Positions 2-24,759 of a stretch of 64,000 nt of DNA are shown in pieces. Origin of the DNA: Nitrosopumilaceae archaeon (GTDB lineage Archaea; Thermoproteota; Nitrososphaeria; Nitrososphaerales; Nitrosopumilaceae); NCBI GenBank assembly GCA_965208905.1, contig OZ242365.1:1952001-2016000 (forward strand), written 5' to 3'. The notes under the pieces are model-generated. The model was given only the letters and a program-made list of their open reading frames with translations. It searched no databases and was not told the DNA's origin. The position numbers and the translations under genes are program-made. Numbering within the stretch: the first letter of the stretch is position 1; each line of letters begins with the position of its first letter.

Positions 2-1669
2 TCATAGAGGTCGTGTGACCGCACCGCGTGAGGCAGACCCTGCCATGGATGCGTACTTTGCAAGAGCCCCATGAGTATAGTTTGGTTTTGGAGGTTGCCA
101 CAAACTCCTTCTGTTTTGTAATGTTTCATTTGAGACCTCCAAGTCTATACGATTATGGGACACATCTATAGATATTACATCGCCATCCTCCACCAGACTT
201 ATGGGCCCACCAACAAAGGCTTCGGGCGCCACATGACCCACCATAAATCCTCTGGTCCCTCCAGAGAACCTCCCATCGGTGACCATCGCCACATGTTTAC
301 CCAGTCCCTGACCCACCAATGCTGCAGTAGTAGATAACATCTCACGCATACCCGGACCCCCTTTTGGTCCCTCATATCGTATGACGACTACATCACCTTC
401 AGATATATCTCCCTTGGATGCACTCTCGAATGCAGTCTCTTCACGATCAAATACTTTGGCTTTACCTGTAAAGTTAGTCATCTGCACACCAGCGGTCTTT
501 ATGACGGCGCCTTCAGGTGCTAGGCTACCCCAGAGTATGTTTGCCGTGCCTTGAGGGTGCAGTGGTGCATTTGGCATACGGATTATCCTCTGTTGCGGGC
601 TCACACTACCCATATCTTTGAGGTTGTCAGATATGGTACCTGTTGTAGCAGTAAGACAGTCTCCGTGCAGTAGGCCATGATTAAGTAGACTCTTCATCAC
701 TAAAGGTATGCCTCCAATCTTGTCCAATGAGTTCATTACATAGTTACCGCCAGGCTTCATGTCTGCTATGTGGGGTGTCTTTTTGCGTATACGCTCAAAA
801 TCACCATAGTCCAGTTTTATGTTGGCCTCGCCGGCCAGTGCCAACAGATGCAGTATGCCATTTGTAGATCCGCCCAATGCATTTAGTATTGTAATGGCAT
901 TCTCAAATGCCTCAAATGTAAGTATGTCTGAAGGCCGTATGCCACTATTCAATAGTTTCACACATGCTACACCACTCTCATATACAATCTTCTCGCGGCG
1001 AGGATCTTCGGCTGGCGGACTAGCGCTGCCCGGCAGAGCCAGCCCTATGGCTTCGGATATGGAGGCCATCGTATTTGCGGTAAACATGCCACCGCAGGAT
1101 CCTGCAGAGGGGCAAGCCGTATCTTCGATATTCTTTAGTGACTCCAGGCTCAGATTGCCTGCATTATATGCACCTACCGCCTCGTATACATCCACCACAG
1201 TGAGTTCACGGCCATCTAGTATGCCGGGCATAATAGTACCGCCATACACAAAGACCGATGGTACATTCAGGCGAGCCATGGCCATCATTGTACCTGGTAG
1301 GCTCTTGTCACATCCGGCCAATCCCACTACCGCATCATATTGGTGGGCGCGCACCATAAGTTCTATAGAGTCAGCTATAATCTCTCTGGATATCAGTGAT
1401 GACTTCATTCCTTCATGTCCCATGGCTATTCCGTCACTGACGGCTATTGTGCCAAACTCTCGGGGTGTGGCACCCGCATCAGATACTCCACGCTTGGCCT
1501 CTTTTGCCAGAGACGGTAGGTGTATGTTGCAGGGTGTTGCTTCGTTGCCTGCATGCGATACACCAATCATGTGTTTTGCCAAATCCTCATCGTTCAGCCC
1601 CATGGCTTTATACATGGCGCGATGCGGAGCTCGAGATACACCCTCTACAACATTACGACTCGATATCAT
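2..1669 (-). CDS. ilvD: dihydroxy-acid dehydratase
   Basis: 555 aa ORF with IlvD motifs [45 protein letters not shown]. Confidence 0.97.
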
Positions 1670-2265
1670 CTAACCAGTTCCATACTGTTCAGCTCGGCCA
1701 GATAAGCAGCGACCTCCTCTTCGGACTCATTGCCGTATATAATCAATACGCGGTCATTCTCCATGGGTTCATAGTCCCGAATGTCATCCACCTCCATGTT
1801 GTTGATAAAGAAGCGCAGTGTGTAGTCATCATTGGTGCAGAACTGTTGACCGCTGGGGAATTGGTAGCATTGGTCTGTGAGTTCGATGTCTAGAGAGTCA
1901 AACAGGAATCCCAAGTCTACGCCAGTGGCGTGCTTGTGAATTGTAGAGCCATCATGATTCTCAAAGTGTATCCAATTTGATTGTATCTGATATCCTGTTT
2001 CATGGAATGGGAATGTATCTCCAAATATCTTTACAAGTATTCCTGTATGTGTGTGCGCACTGTTTAGTGCTCCCGCACCCATGGGTGCACCGCCTATGTC
2101 TGCAGGATCCAAAGTTACAAACACAAATGCCGACCATCCAACTATGGCTCCTACACCGCCTAACACACCGATGGCTATCAGCATATGTTTACGCTTTTCA
2201 GATGCGTGCTTTGATGCATAGCTTGCCCTCTTTTGTTCACGCTCCCGCCTCTCTTTTCTGCCCAT
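1666..2265 (-). CDS. conserved thaumarchaeal membrane-anchored hypothetical protein
   Basis: 199 aa; basic N-terminus, one TM helix, HTH..IHFE..IHKH His motifs, CxxxxxxxxxC; 4-bp overlap with the ilvD start. Confidence 0.75.
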
Positions 2266-2394
2266 GTACTGTATGGTGTCTTTTTTTTGGCTTTAATTAA
2301 TTAATCGAAAAAGACTGACATTAACAGCATATCAACTAGAGACATGTACACCATACGTTACAGCTCCGCTGAAGTTAGTTGCTTGACATCTCAG

Positions 2395-2520
2395 GGAATT
2401 GTACATATGAGTAAACATTACTCATGCCTTTTCTTGGCGCCTTGTATAGCGGTCTACACAGCGTTGGTTTGTTGCCGCCGTACCACAAGCGCCTCTAGAC
2501 GACTTTCCCCGCCGCGGGGC
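2395..2520 (-). ncRNA. orphan right end / omegaRNA-like remnant of a tnpB element related to 20622-23197
   Basis: Shares blocks with the tnpB 3' end at 20622-20765 (GCGGCGGGGAA-GTCGTC, GAAAAGGCATGAGT, terminal AATTCC) and has analogous stems with different sequence; no tnpB ORF is attached. Confidence 0.6.
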
Positions 2521-2623
2521 AGGCTCTGCGCATAATTTTTTTGAAATGAGTACTACATCTGTTGAGTCTGTGTCATACATCTAACTGTAAAAAATTCACA
2601 GTCTAGCCGATACCATACAGAAT

Positions 2624-3335
2624 GAACTGGTAACTAAACGTCGCGTAAAAACTCCGTTTAAGAATTACAAGATTTTCCAAAAAAGCTGTGGATTTTACAC
2701 TTTGCCTAACTAAAACATAAACTTCACATAAGATATACATGGATATACCAGTACCGCAAACTCACCACATGAAGATTCTACTAGATGAGATGTGTGATAT
2801 GGGATATGACATGCTCGAGATCAAGGGGTATGATGTGCATAGTGTGGTACGACTACGTAAATCCATGAAGGATATCGATGTGATTACATATGCACGCGAC
2901 AACCACATGATAGTAGTTACCAAAGACAACAAGTGTGGAAGGAAGTGTGAGCAGGCAGGGGTACAGCATATACTACTGGAAGATAATATACTGTACAACT
3001 TTCTCGCAAGTAGGCTTGAAGAGATGAAGGCGGACTAAACACTAATTCCAAGAATGACGCGTATATCTAGTCATCATACTCAAGTCGGAATAATTTCATT
3101 ACACATAATAACTCACAACTTCCCTTACGATATATACACAATACACGAGAGTGAGCCGCGCGACAAAAAAACCCCTGTCGAACGTGCCGGGTTGTGTGTT
3201 GAGGGTGTGGGTAAACTAAAGGTATTGATACAAAATGCCGCGCTCTACATGTAGAATTTACAGAGTTTTGGGAGAATACTGTAAAAATTTCAGTGTATTT
3301 TGGCATATATTGACGCGACGTTTAGTTACTAGCTC
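2624..3335. mobile_element. non-autonomous TIR-bounded element carrying a PIN-domain gene
   Basis: Inverted repeats GAACTGGTAACTAAACGTCGCGT (from 2624) and ACGCGACGTTTAGTTACTAGCTC (to 3335), 21/23 match; degenerate flanking duplication CATACAGAAT/AATACAAAAC. Confidence 0.65.
2769..3038 (+). CDS. DUF5615 / VapC45-like PIN-domain protein
   Basis: MKILLDE...D.DVITYA...IVVTKD pattern of Mut7-C/DUF5615 PIN domains; start taken at ATG 2769 (the ORF is open from 2739). Confidence 0.8.
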   Translation: MKILLDEMCDMGYDMLEIKGYDVHSVVRLRKSMKDIDVITYARDNHMIVVTKDNKCGRKCEQAGVQHILLEDNILYNFLASRLEEMKAD

Positions 3336-18153: not shown

Positions 18154-18540
18154 ATGAACAAATGTTGGGTAGGTGCCGAATATATCATATCTGGAGACGG
18201 TCATCTTGTGGTTTTAGAGACTCTAAAACATTACATGGCCAAGCTTGAGAGTATTCAGAGTCCCGAATATGGGGCCACAAACATGTTCATTGGACTAGTA
18301 AAACAAGAGGCTGCCAAAAGAATGCCGCAGGTAGAGATGACATTAGACAAGGTGCACCGTTTTTTAATTGGTGAGACTACTGCGCAGTCTTTGATAGATG
18401 ACATACCGATTATAAATAGTGCCATTGACTCTTATAGATTTGATCTTGTACAGTCCCAGTCCAAGACAGATGACGCAGTTGTTACAGCTACTATTGCTCG
18501 CTTAGATGAGGCAAAGCAGGCCATAAATAAATTCGAATAA
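18154..18540 (+). CDS. hypothetical helical protein
   Basis: 128 aa ORF with an upstream AT-rich promoter-like region. Confidence 0.7.
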   Translation: MNKCWVGAEYIISGDGHLVVLETLKHYMAKLESIQSPEYGATNMFIGLVKQEAAKRMPQVEMTLDKVHRFLIGETTAQSLIDDIPIINSAIDSYRFDLVQSQSKTDDAVVTATIARLDEAKQAINKFE

Positions 18541-18545
18541 AAATT

Positions 18546-18779
18546 CTAGTTGTGTACACCAGATAGATACCAGTCAAAATATGGCAATAATTTCTTGCAT
18601 AGTTTTTGACGCTCGTCAGACTCGGCAGAACGGGTGGCAGTTATCTTTGTGTCAAGATACGTACGGGTGCTAGTTGTGCGCAGGCTCTGCTGTATACGAG
18701 ATAGTACGTTTAAAAATTCATCTGTATCAGTAGAGTCAAAGTTTCTGCGAACTCGCTCAGCATCTTCAGCTAATGTCAT
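18546..18779 (-). CDS. small conserved hypothetical protein
   Basis: 77 aa, C-terminal LCKKLLPYFDWY; convergent with the neighbouring gene. Confidence 0.65.
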   Translation of the reverse strand: MTLAEDAERVRRNFDSTDTDEFLNVLSRIQQSLRTTSTRTYLDTKITATRSAESDERQKLCKKLLPYFDWYLSGVHN

Positions 18780-18834
18780 GTTGATATTTTACAGTACGTA
18801 TTTTTAATTCTAGTGATGTTGTGTGTAATAGATA

Positions 18835-19944
18835 TAGTTAGGTGCATAAATAACCCGACACCAGTTTTACACCGGTAGGATTTTGTCTAAATTTCTGAAC
18901 AGAATGCTGCGCGGATCAAACTTTATTTCCAGCGACTCGTATATCCGCATGATTTTCCTCCGGAAATATCTCTTGGCAGGTCGCTTGAAAGTCCGCCGTA
19001 TCCTTGCCTTGCCGTTGAGCCACAGCCATTCGGCCGGATTCAGAAATGGTGAGTACGGCGGCAGAAATATTAGTTTGATGAAATCACTATTCTTTTTCAA
19101 GTATCGCTTTACGCGGCTAGAGTTGTGATATGCAGCATTATCCAGTATTACGGCAACCTTGCCGAACCGTTTTTTCGTCTTGTTCAAATATCTGATAAAG
19201 GACCTGTCGTTGGCCTTGCTAGCGGCCATATAGCATGTCTGCCCATCTAGCGTGATGCCACCGTATATGGTCTGGCGCTGGTTGCCGAGTGGCGTTTGTA
19301 CCGGTATGGCATCACCGCGTGTATAGACTGCGCCGCTGCCAAACATACTTAAATTTTGGTGGCTTTCGTCTACCATCACGAGTGTAAAACCGTCCTTTTC
19401 AAACATTTCTGCCTCCTTTTTGGTGTCTTTCTGCCAGATTTCGAGATCTTTCCTTGGTGGAATTCGGTCGGATATCCGGGGAGTCTTCCGTATAGTGAAG
19501 CCAAGAGACCTAAGGATACGGCGCGCTTGTGATTCGCTGTATTTTATGCCGGTCTTTTTCTCAGCCAGTTTAACAAATCCGTAGGCGGTAAATCGCTTGA
19601 CACCGTTAATTATGTTCTCTAATGTGTGGCGCGGTACGAAAGATGGACGGCCAGGCCTCGCACCATCGGCGAGGCCATCCAGGCCTTTGTGGTCGTAGGC
19701 ATTAAGCCAATCATATATGGTGCTACGATCGACACCAAGCACATCCGCTGCCGCAGAGATGGTATATCCTTTAATGCGCACCATGTTTACGGCTACGATA
19801 CGGGCGTGCTGTGTCGCACTCTTAGTCTGTTTTAGGGCAGCCTTTATTTTTTGGGCATTAGTTTGGTTATTCATATAATTAGTTAGTAATTTTGATCATT
19901 TATGTATTTCTAATAGAGTGTAGGATTATTTATGCTCCCAACTA
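18835..19944 (-). mobile_element. IS630-family insertion sequence, copy 1 (1110 bp)
   Basis: TIRs TAGTTAGGTGCATAAATAA / TTATTTATGCTCCCAACTA, TA duplication on both sides, matches the copy at 21363-22472. Confidence 0.95.
18867..19874 (-). CDS. IS630-family transposase
   Basis: N-terminal HTH, RPGRP, DDE triad VDES / LDNA..H / LPPYSPFLNPAE. Confidence 0.95.
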   Translation of the reverse strand: MNNQTNAQKIKAALKQTKSATQHARIVAVNMVRIKGYTISAAADVLGVDRSTIYDWLNAYDHKGLDGLADGARPGRPSFVPRHTLENIINGVKRFTAYGFVKLAEKKTGIKYSESQARRILRSLGFTIRKTPRISDRIPPRKDLEIWQKDTKKEAEMFEKDGFTLVMVDESHQNLSMFGSGAVYTRGDAIPVQTPLGNQRQTIYGGITLDGQTCYMAASKANDRSFIRYLNKTKKRFGKVAVILDNAAYHNSSRVKRYLKKNSDFIKLIFLPPYSPFLNPAEWLWLNGKARIRRTFKRPAKRYFRRKIMRIYESLEIKFDPRSILFRNLDKILPV

Positions 19945-19997
19945 TACACCCACCAGCAGAAAAACATCTATTAAACAATCATCTCTTTGTGTATGGA

Positions 19998-20606
19998 GTG
20001 GACAGAGAGATAGAGAGGGTATTACAGAGTCTTGATGAGACATCTCGTCTTGAGAACTCTCGCGCAGTAACCGTACCGGCAGGAGAGCTGATGTCTGCCA
20101 TAACATGGGATACTGGAGTGTTCTTTAACATATTGTTAAGAGGCATGAGGGCAAAGAACGTCTTGGAGATAGGAACATCAACTGGCTTCTCCACCATATG
20201 GCTAGCAGAGGCCATACATGATGGTAGTGTTATAACCATCGAGGCCAACTCAAAGAAGAGGAGTCGAGCCCAGGCAAACTTCAAGAAGGCAGGACTTGAA
20301 GGGCGTATAAAGATACAGTCAGGTGATGCGCAGGATGTATTAAACAGCATGTCATCGTCTGGCGAGTATAATCTCTTCTTTGACTTTGTACTGATAGATG
20401 CGGATAAAGAGAACATACCCCTCTACTTTGATATGGTACTGCCTATGATCAGGGTTGGTGGCATAATTGCCACTGACAATATGACGTACCCAAAAAAGTT
20501 TACTCACATGATGGAGAGATTCGCAAAGTCTGTGCGCCAAAACCCCAGAGTTAGAACTGTAACCATACCGATAGGAAACGGGGAAGAGTTGACCATTAAG
20601 ATATAG
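19998..20606 (+). CDS. O-methyltransferase (CCoAOMT/YrrM-like)
   Basis: VLEIGTSTGFST, FDFVLIDADK, TDN; the ORF-track start at 19932 lies inside the IS630 end, so GTG 19998 is preferred. Confidence 0.9.
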   Translation: MDREIERVLQSLDETSRLENSRAVTVPAGELMSAITWDTGVFFNILLRGMRAKNVLEIGTSTGFSTIWLAEAIHDGSVITIEANSKKRSRAQANFKKAGLEGRIKIQSGDAQDVLNSMSSSGEYNLFFDFVLIDADKENIPLYFDMVLPMIRVGGIIATDNMTYPKKFTHMMERFAKSVRQNPRVRTVTIPIGNGEELTIKI

Positions 20607-21362
20607 TCATACAAAAGATATGGAATTATATACAAAAGTACACAGCCTCGGCTGTACACTCATGCCTTTTCTGACGGCTTTTTTGTATACAGTGGAGCAT
20701 AGAAGGTGTTGGCTTGTAGCCCTCCTTATGCCCCGGCCGTCTTAGGACGACGTTCCCCGCCGCCCTATACAGAATATTCCAGGCGGCATTAACATCCGCG
20801 TGGAATACCCTGGTACAATTTGTGCAAATGAATTTGTCGCGTGATATACGCGACTCTGAATCTACGTGACCACACACATGGCACGTCTGGCTCGTATATT
20901 TGGCCGATGCCCCCAACAGCGGCATGTTGTGCATCTCACACCACTGCGCAAGCTTGCGCAGGAACTCCCCAACATGGTTCTCCCGCATTGAACGGTTCAT
21001 AGCGCGTTTGTAATTCCCACCATGTGTGGTCATATCCTTTACGGAGAGCGACTCGACCACGACTGCGTCCACGCCATTAGTTATCTGCGCAATCGTCTGA
21101 TTTATGGTGTTCGCAGCTATGTTGTTGGCCTTCCTGTATAGCCGCTTAATCTGATCATTCAATATATGCCACTTCCGGCCATGCCGTGTCTTGCGGTCGC
21201 GCAAACTCTTTAGCGCGTCAATCTCCCGCAGGATTGCTCTATGGCGGGTGTTGTGTATTGTAACGTTGCCGTCCGTATCTACCGTGACGGCGAGATGCTT
21301 GCCGCCCACATCAACGCCACGCATTACACCCGTAGTATGGTGCGACTCTACCGGTTCATGTA

Positions 21363-22472
21363 TAGTTAGGTGCATAAATAACCCGACACCAGTTTTACAC
21401 CGGTAGGATTTTGTCTAAATTTCTGAACAGAATGCTGCGCGGATCAAACTTTATTTCCAGCGACTCGTATATCCGCATGATTTTCCTCCGGAAATATCTC
21501 TTGGCAGGTCGCTTGAAAGTCCGCCGTATCCTTGCCTTGCCGTTGAGCCACAGCCATTCGGCCGGATTCAGAAATGGTGAGTACGGCGGCAGAAATATTA
21601 GTTTGATGAAATCACTATTCTTTTTCAAGTATCGCTTTACGCGGCTAGAGTTGTGATATGCAGCATTATCCAGTATTACGGCAACCTTGCCGAACCGTTT
21701 TTTCGTCTTGTTCAAATATCTGATAAAGGACCTGTCGTTGGCCTTGCTAGCGGCCATATAGCATGTCTGCCCATCTAGCGTGATGCCACCGTATATGGTC
21801 TGGCGCTGGTTGCCGAGTGGCGTTTGTACCGGTATGGCATCACCGCGTGTATAGACTGCGCCGCTGCCAAACATACTTAAATTTTGGTGGCTTTCGTCTA
21901 CCATCACGAGTGTAAAACCGTCCTTTTCAAACATTTCTGCCTCCTTTTTGGTGTCTTTCTGCCAGATTTCGAGATCTTTCCTTGGTGGAATTCGGTCGGA
22001 TATCCGGGGAGTCTTCCGTATAGTGAAGCCAAGAGACCTAAGGATACGGCGCGCTTGTGATTCGCTGTATTTTATGCCGGTCTTTTTCTCAGCCAGTTTA
22101 ACAAATCCGTAGGCGGTAAATCGCTTGACACCGTTAATTATGTTCTCTAATGTGTGGCGCGGTACGAAAGATGGACGGCCAGGCCTCGCACCATCGGCGA
22201 GGCCATCCAGGCCTTTGTGGTCGTAGGCATTAAGCCAATCATATATGGTGCTACGATCGACACCAAGCACATCCGCTGCCGCAGAGATGGTATATCCTTT
22301 AATGCGCACCATGTTTACGGCTACGATACGGGCGTGCTGTGTCGCACTCTTAGTCTGTTTTAGGGCAGCCTTTATTTTTTGGGCATTAGTTTGGTTATTC
22401 ATATAATTAGTTAGTAATTTTGATCATTTATGTATTTCTAATAGAGTGTAGGATTATTTATGCTCCCAACTA
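21363..22472 (-). mobile_element. IS630-family insertion sequence, copy 2, inserted in tnpB
   Basis: Same TIRs and identical transposase translation as copy 1; TA duplication. Confidence 0.95.
21395..22402 (-). CDS. IS630-family transposase
   Basis: Translation identical to 18867-19874. Confidence 0.95.
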   Translation of the reverse strand: MNNQTNAQKIKAALKQTKSATQHARIVAVNMVRIKGYTISAAADVLGVDRSTIYDWLNAYDHKGLDGLADGARPGRPSFVPRHTLENIINGVKRFTAYGFVKLAEKKTGIKYSESQARRILRSLGFTIRKTPRISDRIPPRKDLEIWQKDTKKEAEMFEKDGFTLVMVDESHQNLSMFGSGAVYTRGDAIPVQTPLGNQRQTIYGGITLDGQTCYMAASKANDRSFIRYLNKTKKRFGKVAVILDNAAYHNSSRVKRYLKKNSDFIKLIFLPPYSPFLNPAEWLWLNGKARIRRTFKRPAKRYFRRKIMRIYESLEIKFDPRSILFRNLDKILPV

Positions 22473-23263
22473 TATGGCAATATGCAGCTCAAACATGTGG
22501 TCTGATGGTTTGGTATGCTTGTCCACCCGTTTGGTGACATCAACTATCTTGAATGAGCGCATGTCCCATGATGTATTGATGGGCTTGGCGGTCTCCACCG
22601 TACCATATCCGGGGATATGTACTGTATGGCTATCTTTCCGTACAGGCGGTGTAACGGAACTAAGTATGATGCGGCCGTCTTTGCGGCGGTATGGCGCATG
22701 GCCGGAGTTGTCATCCATGACTCTCCTACACGCGACGGAGGCATCCTGTATGGCGCCCCTGCCAAACACCATAGGCAAGTCAGATACCCATGCATGTTCA
22801 GCGCGCCACTCCGTAAGCTACTTGAACATGCCGTACTTTAATGCCATCTTTGACGGCCCAAAATCATATGTATGGTAGTCATCGTCCAGCATACCTGATG
22901 TAAAATCCAGCTTGCCCGGCAGTTTGAAGGGCTGCAGGATGTCCACTACCACCCTCTCCATATATTCGCCACCAAACAAATACTCTGATACGGCGCGGTT
23001 GTACACATATCTTGACGCATGATTCGTGCGGTGCACCCACTCCGCGAACCGCACATCCCTCCGTAGCGGCACCTTAACTATTTGTATCATGATATATAAT
23101 ACGGTATACTGGTATTTAAGGGGAGTTGTATGGACGCGATCCGTGGTTCAGGCATTAACTCTCAGAATCGGGGTTGTGTACTTTTGTATATAATTCCCAA
23201 AAGATACTACAAAACGCAGGTGGATTAAGCTTTTAGGATGTAATTTGTACAATATGTAACATA

Positions 23264-23638
23264 ATGGTCACCCGAACAGAGTACCTTCAAAGCATGCTCG
23301 AAAAGATACAGGGATCGTACAATGTCATAAATGGGCTAAGCGACAAACCTGGTGACATCACCATCATCCGACTAGAGTTACTCCGGGCAAAGGGCATAAT
23401 GCAGGTGGTAGTCAACAAGATAAATCCACGAGATTATCCAAATGTCGATATTCCAGGCCTTGTATCACGATTGTCCATATTTTTGGATGGCTATTACTTT
23501 GAGAGGGAGTTAGATATAATGGAGCCATTATACGGCGATGATCCTGGAAGAATTCGGCATCTACGCCTAAAAATACTAGATTCAATGCGAAGTAAAGATT
23601 TAACAGTGAAGATAGAGGAGATCCTCTCGGAGCTATAG
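23264..23638 (+). CDS. conserved hypothetical protein
   Basis: 124 aa, Y.FEREL....PLYGDDP.R motif. Confidence 0.7.
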   Translation: MVTRTEYLQSMLEKIQGSYNVINGLSDKPGDITIIRLELLRAKGIMQVVVNKINPRDYPNVDIPGLVSRLSIFLDGYYFERELDIMEPLYGDDPGRIRHLRLKILDSMRSKDLTVKIEEILSEL

Positions 23639-23641
23639 ATT

Positions 23642-23749
23642 ATGAAGTGTGTCATATGTGGGTGTAAAGATCATAGACTCATCGGTTGTGCTCGACATTT
23701 TGCAAAAAAGTGTAGCTGTTATGCCGACGGGAACCATACCGACAAGTAG
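23642..23749 (+). CDS. putative Cys/His-rich microprotein (35 aa)
   Basis: MKCVICGCKDHRLIGCARHFAKKCSCYADGNHTDK, starting 3 bp after the upstream stop codon. Confidence 0.45.
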   Translation: MKCVICGCKDHRLIGCARHFAKKCSCYADGNHTDK

Positions 23750-24200
23750 GCGACATCCAATGCTTGGAGGTCTGGCCATACGTTTTTTGGTGTGGCAACA
23801 TAATATCATGCCGTCTTGAAGACATCACAGTGAAAGTGATCTATTAAGACACACCATCATACAACAGTAATTCTAGCTCGACCTCCAGCGTTTATTTACA
23901 GCATCATAAACTACAGCATATTCAGATGATTCTCTTGTGGTAATCTCTTTTTTTGTACATCTTGGTCCACTTAGAAGGGTTAGGGTCCTCAAATGAGCTA
24001 TGTTTGCCATCTAGAAATTTTTCTCTCCGTCCATACACTGTTTGTGGGACCAAGATGTGCTCACAATACATCTTGACCATACTAGGTTGAAGGTTGAGTT
24101 GTACTATATGGACTGTTCCATACGTACCATGTGATTTTTTGTTTATTATATTGTGTATTGATGTTCGGTCTTATTTTAGTACAACCTACTCTACCAACTC

Positions 24201-24335
24201 TCACAAGTCTCGCCGACCAGGTCCAGACCGTATATGAAAGTTAAAACAGCAAGGACACTCTTTGCGTATACATTCTTCGGCATCACGATGACCACAAATT
24301 CCACATTGACAACTTTGCATGGATTTACTCTTCAT
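24201..24335 (-). CDS. putative Cys-rich microprotein (44 aa)
   Basis: MKSKSMQSCQCGICGHRDAEECIRKECPCCFNFHIRSGPGRRDL; AT-rich TATA-like sequence about 25-30 bp upstream. Confidence 0.55.
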   Translation of the reverse strand: MKSKSMQSCQCGICGHRDAEECIRKECPCCFNFHIRSGPGRRDL

Positions 24336-24447
24336 TCCAGAACTTTTAATCGCTACCATATATTTAATATGCAAACAAGTGATTTAAACTTCACCTATTT
24401 AATGTGTAAATGACACTATTATAATAGCGTGGTTTTGTGCCGTATGC

Positions 24448-24759
24448 CTAACGCTTCCGTCTACGTTTACGGGTCACCTGTTTATTCATCTCAGCTTTTC
24501 GGTTATCAACGGTGGTGATTATCTCTTGAATCACGCCATCCAAATCGTTGTCAGAAGCAGGAGGCTCGATTGCGGCCGCAATATTGGATATGGTACCTGC
24601 AATATCGGAGCTGATCTGCTCAAATGCTTCAGGATCATCGTATGCCTGACTATACAGGTTTTTGAGTCTGTCAACTTGACTCAAAACTTGGCCTGTCAGC
24701 GTAAATTTGTAAAGGCTACCATTCACTTCTACTTCTTTTACTATCATAATGATATTCAT
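24448..24759 (-). CDS. conserved hypothetical protein
   Basis: 103 aa ORF with an Arg-rich tail. Confidence 0.7.
   Translation of the reverse strand: MNIIMIVKEVEVNGSLYKFTLTGQVLSQVDRLKNLYSQAYDDPEAFEQISSDIAGTISNIAAAIEPPASDNDLDGVIQEIITTVDNRKAEMNKQVTRKRRRKR

Follow-up and report, generated by a model that had tools for sequence, protein, structure and literature searches.

TnpB carried between IS1595-type inverted repeats in a Nitrosopumilaceae archaeon, with a one-sided G beside the target-site duplication

Six branches of TnpB associated with DDE transposases, DDE-1 to DDE-6, have been described, in which tnpB lies inside terminal inverted repeats (TIRs) with its 3' end near the transposon end and solo copies are moved in trans; for DDE-5, a TA motif is noted 8 bp upstream of the ends (Altae-Tran et al. 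2023; PMC10691335). The only DDE vehicle named in the available text of that paper is IS630, with IS1595 appearing just in a control profile list, and a 2026 review describes the DDE-TnpB association as rare and lists ISL2, IS630, and IS1031 (PMC13565253). IS1595 itself is characterized by GG ends, an 8-bp target-site duplication (TSD), and a zinc finger in the transposase (PMC8101967). In IS605 elements, once TnpB has cut the empty site, repair re-establishes or propagates the copy (Meers et al., bioRxiv 10.1101/2023.03.14.532601), while Fanzors use the 5' TSD within the target-adjacent motif (TAM) and the 3' TSD within the scaffold, and a pseudoknot is missing from Fanzor1 (PMC13565253). We describe a tnpB-bearing element of 2578 bp at positions 20621-23198 of a 64,000-nucleotide stretch of a Nitrosopumilaceae genome (assembly GCA_965208905.1, contig OZ242365.1, positions 1,952,001 to 2,016,000); this whole stretch is called the window.

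As in the definition of the DDE branches, TnpB lies within the TIRs of a DDE element here, and the gene ends less than 250 bp from the element end. An original prediction, made from the letters of the window, had presented the element as unlike any prokaryotic tnpB element. This was overstated, since DDE-borne, TIR-bounded TnpBs, solo copies moved in trans included, are already published as a kind (PMC10691335). The partnership of TnpB with IS1595 was not found in the literature searched or in the available text of PMC10691335 and the 2026 review, a search that did not cover subscription papers or the figure and data that define DDE-1 to DDE-6. One of these branches could be IS1595 or IS6 and include the proteins described here, DDE-5 especially, whose TA motif 8 bp upstream has the same geometry as a G found beside the IS1595 cassette.

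The best explanation, to which we give a probability of roughly 0.6, is that the window element belongs to a family of non-autonomous IS1595-family elements with a TnpB-omegaRNA module as sole cargo, which would be moved in trans by IS1595 and kept by TnpB homing. It builds on what was observed of the ends, the 8-bp TSD, the matching autonomous IS1595 elements, and the one-sided, target-derived G. Because sister copies nearly always follow the same base, the data suggest that it is the nuclease, and not the transposase, that determines which insertions persist. The features of the element, in window coordinates, are as follows.

20613-20620: 8-bp TSD on the tnpB-3' side, AAAAGATA, with which the predicted guide would begin (its initial 8 nt, minus strand)
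20621-20644, minus strand: right 24-bp TIR, IS1595-type (GGGAATTATATAC...), holding the tnpB stop codon, its outermost base off the family consensus
20621-20765, minus strand: predicted omegaRNA scaffold, overlapping the tnpB tail, with a P1 hairpin (20745-20765) with a GGGAA loop, a long-range helix P2, and a terminal hairpin
20626-21360, minus strand: 3' part of tnpB, with the RuvC-I D, RuvC-II E, C4 zinc finger, RuvC-III D, and disordered tail (PF07282, PF01385)
21361-22474, minus strand: nested IS630, 1114 bp including both TA, with a 335-aa transposase at 21395-22402 (NF033545 above cut-off)
22475-23090, minus strand: 5' part of tnpB (WED/REC region), with a nonsense codon inside at 22818-22820
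23175-23198, minus strand: left 24-bp TIR
23199-23206: 8-bp TSD on the tnpB-5' side, AAAAGATA
23207, minus strand: G immediately 5' of the TSD, candidate TAM base, which predates the insertion (present at the empty site of the close relative G005)

The perfect 23-bp inverted repeats first noticed in the window are present (20622-20644 and 23175-23197). Copies of the family extend the TIR to 24 bp starting with GGG, position 20621 being the deviating base of the window copy. The 23-mer has 22 exact matches in the genome of the window (G000; one contig, 99.6% complete), most of them in inverted pairs spaced by about 1.45 kb, and the pair is therefore not a product of chance. The claimed duplication stood, at a length of exactly 8 bp; the extra C read on its right is the last TIR base, and a 9- or 10-bp reading was ruled out by empty sites in G005. 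Without the IS630, the element measures 1466 bp with the corrected ends, the earlier estimate of about 1464 bp corresponding to 1464 bp with the ends then used. On the minus strand, tnpB extends from 23090 to a TAA inside the right TIR (20626-20628), as had been read. It is split by the IS630, a later insertion into tnpB, and carries the nonsense codon, and because of these two lesions the window copy is a dead member of a family whose sister copies are alive. The D-E-D residues and the zinc finger reported from the window are present in the family (D223, E309, D395, and C4), although the window gene is broken and not intact. G005 has the empty site, with a single copy of the 8-mer, and one contig of sequencing run X6 joins the flanks of the element, skipping 2586 (2578 + 8) bases.

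The family, termed lineage A, comprises 16 full-length copies and one internally deleted copy in G000, 17 together, plus three right-end remnants. TSDs matching at at least 7 of 8 positions flank 13 of the 17, and these are 13 different 8-bp sequences; many TIR-bounded copies with differing TSDs, as anticipated from the window alone, thus exist in this one genome. A TnpB of 450-451 aa with D, E, and D intact is encoded by 14 of the 17 copies, pairwise identity in the family is 77-98%, and the ratio of nonsynonymous to synonymous divergence (dN/dS) is 0.21. Selection acts on the protein, and the spread of the family is recent and multi-copy. An intact sister copy scores above the cut-off for NCBIfam NF040570 (guided_TnpB); its structure model has a mean predicted local distance difference test score (pLDDT) of 84 and finds as top Foldseek matches 8h1j and 8iaz, the TnpBs of ISDra2 and ISFba1, with ISDra2 best. 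A single-sequence model (pLDDT, 34) was set aside. From E309 to zinc-finger C366 there are 57 residues, the canonical TnpB spacing, against about six in Fanzor and TnpB2 (pro-Fanzor); by this spacing and the best fold match, the protein is a canonical TnpB, and the proposed resemblance to Fanzors does not extend to it.

A search with the family protein gave matches in 13 of 61 genomes, 8 of the 9 other members of the genus among them. Orthologues of 55% identity in another species (G006) and more distant TnpBs in another genus, g7 (G015), are enclosed by the same ends and likewise by 8-bp TSDs. The closest named records are from Cenarchaeum sp. (62-84% identity), and several of the runs containing the family are sponge metagenomes; on these grounds the host is probably a sponge-associated ammonia-oxidising archaeon. 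A tblastn search of plasmids returned 1905 records, all below 60% identity, the best among the matches listed being 25-28%.

The autonomous DDE transposase with the same ends that the original prediction had envisaged was found in G000 in the form of four IS1595 elements with GGGAATTATA termini and perfect 8-bp TSDs. The first 10-13 bases of their ends are identical to those of the cassette TIR, and the overall identity is 13-17/24. Two of the four transposases were scanned (NF033547, 176 bits; cut-off, 75). This DDE transposase with its N-terminal zinc finger is encoded outside the cassette, in trans in G000 and in cis in L078 (see below), and IS1595 was found in 9/9 other genomes of the genus. 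A cognate Y1 or IS607 TnpA was expected to be lacking, and neither PF01797 nor NF033518 was found in G000, where positive controls were detected; Y1 TnpA was above cut-off in 0/41 genomes, and the IS607 TnpA (NF033518) was searched in G000 only. Like IS1595 derivatives, the cassette has TIRs beginning with GG, an 8-bp TSD, and ends common to IS1595 elements of the same genome. It differs from them in having no transposase, in a cargo that overlaps the right TIR and apparently uses it as part of an RNA, and in a one-sided target motif.

L078 (G001, 606-3167) is a 2562-bp composite within one TSD that contains an intact IS1595 transposase, an inner right TIR, a tnpB of lineage B, and an outer TIR. 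L081 and L079 (G006) are similar composites in which transposases or ends are damaged, and in L056 a damaged IS1595-like gene is fused to the 3' half of a lineage-A tnpB. Autonomous forms uniting IS1595 and tnpB therefore exist, though for lineage B, and the composites suggest capture of tnpB through use of an outer end, being plausible capture intermediates.

For the flanking bases, copies were oriented by tnpB, and those with TSDs matching at 7 or more of 8 positions were kept. A G stands directly 5' of the left TSD (position -1) in 13/13 copies of the family in G000 (binomial p, 4.7e-9); four copies whose TSDs do not match were dropped, two of which have G. At the mirror position on the other side, C is found in 3/13 copies, and a palindromic preference of the transposase was rejected for that reason. 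The same G occurs at -1 in 4/5 copies in G006 (3/8 other-species rows dropped), 9/9 in G015 (2/11 dropped, both with G), and 5/5 in lineage C (2/7 dropped). Among controls with the same end type it occurs in 9/32, namely, 7/23 of lineage B (4/27 dropped) and 2/9 of the autonomous IS1595 elements; these controls leave out two miniature inverted-repeat transposable elements, 341419 (a reversed family-A derivative) and 658457 (orientation undetermined), and include one more autonomous element. The difference between 26/27 and 9/32 gives a Fisher p of 4e-8, or 6e-5 without lineage A of G000, values to be read with the related genomes not being independent. The first TSD base is lineage-biased as well (T in the A-type, A in lineage C), and lineages E and F, which have IS6-like ends, show TT at -3/-2 in 10/12 and 12/12 copies, followed mostly by G (E) or A (F). 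The left flanks of lineage B are weakly T-rich 6-8 bases before the TSD (15/23 with T at -8), which could be either a displaced motif or chance.

Empty sites in G005 were read for nine TSD-bearing copies. The 8-mer is single in 9/9, and the G is already there in 8/9, and hence it is derived from the target. This search took in 14 of the 17 copies (1024215, 1895575, and 2089312 were left out), of which 33496, 530183, 1310837, and 2149851 were unreadable at the base level and 116544 has no TSD. Since the motif is one-sided, lies outside the duplication, is tied to the TnpB lineage, and falls where the RNA model places a TAM, it is best read from these sequences as the TAM of TnpB. Two empty alleles appear to be without the candidate TAM G, that of G005 at the 339644 site (L120; read directly) and that of X6 at the window site (deduced from the coordinates of the joint). 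They are possibly escape alleles, the number (n = 2) being too small for a test.

The final ~145 nt of the element have a predicted consensus fold with a z of -6.5, and 0 of 100 column shuffles were as stable. Across 24 rows (lineage A and G015), 93% of the cells are paired; one pair of P1 is seen as GC, CG, and AU, P2 has two-sided changes, and three of five measures lie beyond all 500 shuffles. Synonymous divergence is 0.22 in the tnpB tail versus 0.34-0.36 in the core. A pseudoknot in which the stem-1 region pairs with the end of the scaffold is known for TnpB, and in ISDra2 it is closed by the nucleotides directly preceding the guide (PMC10097598). In the family, a candidate pseudoknot would pair the P1 loop, GGGA(A/U), with the complementary 4-5 nt at the terminus of the TIR. 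If this pairing holds, the guide would begin with the TSD. A hairpin loop fits the group's own terminal 4-mer in 4 of the 10 end-type groups folded (A, G015, F, and G), with one G015 loop also matching a foreign end; a match of 3-5 nt between loop and terminus was seen by eye in C, D4, and D of G005, and B, E, H, and D of G000 gave no score. A scan of 18500-24500 against Rfam gave no match to an E value of 1. The proposal of an omegaRNA that ends in the TIR and takes its guide from the duplication stands as a prediction to which the fold, the complementarity of loop and terminus, and the TAM-like base outside the TSD lend indirect support.

Right-end-only remnants of 150-215 nt were seen in G000 (near 1493800-1494006, 2197130-2197325, and 1694379-1694545) and at L061; as they keep the whole predicted scaffold, they are possible solo guide loci. 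Elsewhere in G000, the predicted guide of the window copy (20605-20620) finds five 12-nt matches that have a G before them, versus 0-1 for other copies, and its 11 matches overall put it in the top 2% of matched 12-mers. No other full copy is as damaged as this one, in which even the terminal base expected to close the pseudoknot is altered; self-targeting as the cause of this damage is speculation from a single case (n = 1).

According to the homing model, IS1595 transposases encoded elsewhere would move the cassette in trans into AT-rich sites. The omegaRNA of each copy would run from the 3' end of tnpB through the right TIR, whose terminus would close the pseudoknot, and the guide would consist of the TSD and flank. 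TnpB would require a short TAM just upstream of the TSD and would cut a precise empty allele where such a TAM happened to exist; the filled allele would be immune, because the left TIR follows the TAM side after 8 nt. Repair from the filled allele would then restore or spread the element, and copies at TAM sites would persist while others would be lost. In IS605, TnpA and TnpB read the same TAM (bioRxiv 10.1101/2023.03.14.532601), unlike in the IS1595 cassette; there the transposase picks the TAM, which it apparently does not do here, and consequently only some insertions would be protected and the census of copies would be filtered. Since an excision scar with two TSDs is no target, the substrate would have to be an uninserted or precisely reverted allele.

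Several points weigh against this model. A TAM of one base (perhaps aTnG) is unusually short, and across genomes just the G holds. The products of DDE excision are a break or a scar with two TSDs, not a precise empty site, and reaching 13/13 by retention alone demands a high loss of unprotected copies. The match between cassette and autonomous ends is limited to the terminal 10-13 bases (13-17/24). With regard to the RNA, two of the five fold measures are not above the 500 shuffles, and relatedness inflates the figures; the pseudoknot helix, moreover, is nearly invariant in the family and for that reason has no support from covariation or compensatory change, its fifth pair failing in 10/24 rows. 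The RNA runs X18 and X19 consist of low-depth contigs (~2-13, patchy, over tnpB and a neighbour gene), by which an omegaRNA is neither supported nor excluded. Lineage B has the same ends and intact catalytic motifs and no such motif (7/23), lineages A and C have a TIR subtype in common in G000 and G005, which would permit a one-sided preference of a transposase subtype, and three tnpB-less deletion derivatives retain the G.

These last points would also fit a TnpB that is active and yet an incidental passenger, the G being the target preference of one IS1595 transposase subtype. Lineage B indeed spreads without the motif, A and C have both the CAAAAGTAC TIR subtype and the G, and the G is kept on the tnpB-5' side in the three short derivatives that have lost tnpB. 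Other passengers are borne by IS1595 elements of G000, for read from their translations, the IS1595 elements 1043578 and 1770047 and the IS6-like elements 18695 and 157876 carry methyltransferase-like and HNH/restriction-nuclease-like genes. We nevertheless regard an incidental passenger as unlikely. In several copies the two 24-bp TIRs are identical, and yet the base is one-sided and follows the orientation of tnpB; the G is seen with several TIR subtypes in G006 and G015, and in just 2/9 autonomous IS1595 elements; the tnpB-less derivatives can be deletions in place; and a dN/dS of 0.21 together with the conserved RNA fold indicates selection on the module.

A bias could alternatively arise at insertion and not by later homing, if TnpB-omegaRNA bound TAM DNA or contacted the IS1595 transposase and so steered integration. 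The near-complete bias in insertions that are young, since the sites read are empty in the close relative G005, and the lineage bias of the first TSD base would both fit such steering. It is rather improbable in our view, as all catalytic residues are kept, which fits cutting, and TnpB is dispensable for the transposition of IS605 (PMC13565253). Nor was any sequence link seen from one copy's guide to another's target, though no search was aimed at such a link. That the element has ordinary IS605, IS607, or IS1341 ends, with inverted repeats and duplication due to chance or remnants, would agree with the normal tie of TnpB to a Y1 or serine TnpA (PMC10691335). The 13 different 8-bp TSDs, the 9 empty sites, the matching IS1595 elements, and the failure to find a TnpA in G000 refute it, and it merits practically no credence.

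With IS200/IS605, IS1341, and IS607 elements, the cassette shares the canonical TnpB fold, the D-E-D spacing, and a left-end motif, and it is predicted to share a right-end RNA that overlaps the open reading frame and takes its guide from the flank. In contrast to them, it has TIRs and a TSD and no TnpA, and the motif lies outside the 8-bp duplication and is not the target of the transposase. In Fanzor1 and Fanzor2, as here, an RNA-guided nuclease rides on DDE vehicles that are several and unrelated, often with no transposase (PMC13565253). The rearranged RuvC-II is theirs, however, and in the cassette the guide seed is apparently the TSD, with a pseudoknot possible. The parallel is one of convergence, not descent.

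The genome contains many further TnpBs in similar settings. With a profile built from nine local TnpBs, 83 loci were found in G000, 62 of them full-length. Matching inverted ends of six types occur at 59 of the 62, with one end at two loci and none at one. Of these 59, 26 have IS1595-type and 17 have IS6-like GGTTCC ends, the other types numbering 6, 5, 4, and 1; the patterns come from a de novo repeat search, making this a tally and no independent test. IS6-like transposases with GG..CTGTCAA ends are found at 18695 and 157876 of G000 (below the NF033587 cut-off). No autonomous partner was found in G000 for TGGGCT, AGAG, or GGGTGTG ends, and no exact one for GGTTCCT. Transposon ends do get swapped, for lineage D has IS1595 ends in G005 and other ends in G000. 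In a midpoint-rooted FastTree tree (126 rows and 346 columns; weak backbone, P-rows without genomic context), A, C, and D group together (support, 0.986), and B and the G015 proteins stand apart. An "A-like" label for the G015 proteins was given up, as the tree puts them on a separate branch; the P1 hairpin is shared. Two identical lineage-C copies (1455264-1456902 and 2049469-2051107 of G000) have long internal inverted repeats and swapped TSD halves, the left half of one being the right half of the other; the swap is a sign of recombination between copies or of replicative movement.

A broader reading, which we offer tentatively and on balance do not expect to hold in full, is that in these archaea, in which a search for Y1 TnpA found none, TnpB-omegaRNA modules have moved wholesale onto DDE vehicles, with the loop re-tuned to each TIR terminus and the variable 8-bp TSD serving as guide seed. 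The transposase not being directed to the TAM, the nuclease alone would then filter or steer insertions. Were this so, the IS1595 partnership would be an unreported one, and it would be a prokaryotic parallel, by a different solution, to the colonisation of TIR transposons by Fanzors. Why a DDE transposon keeps an RNA-guided nuclease is an open question (PMC13565253), puzzling because TAM and transposase target are uncoupled. In the family, young and intact copies are plentiful, empty alleles are known, candidate transposases and composite intermediates are at hand, and lineage B serves as a built-in negative control; the homing, steering, and passenger models therefore differ in predictions that can be tested directly. 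The family is also a pointer to compact TnpBs with a possibly very short TAM.

A scan of the left end with promoter and terminator consensus sequences, which are unsuited to archaea, gave no match. A second IS630, identical to the nested one, lies at 18833-19946 of the window and ends at the start of an O-methyltransferase gene (19932-20606). The X6 contig departs from the window sequence at 19944, and the second copy is thus probably missing in X6.

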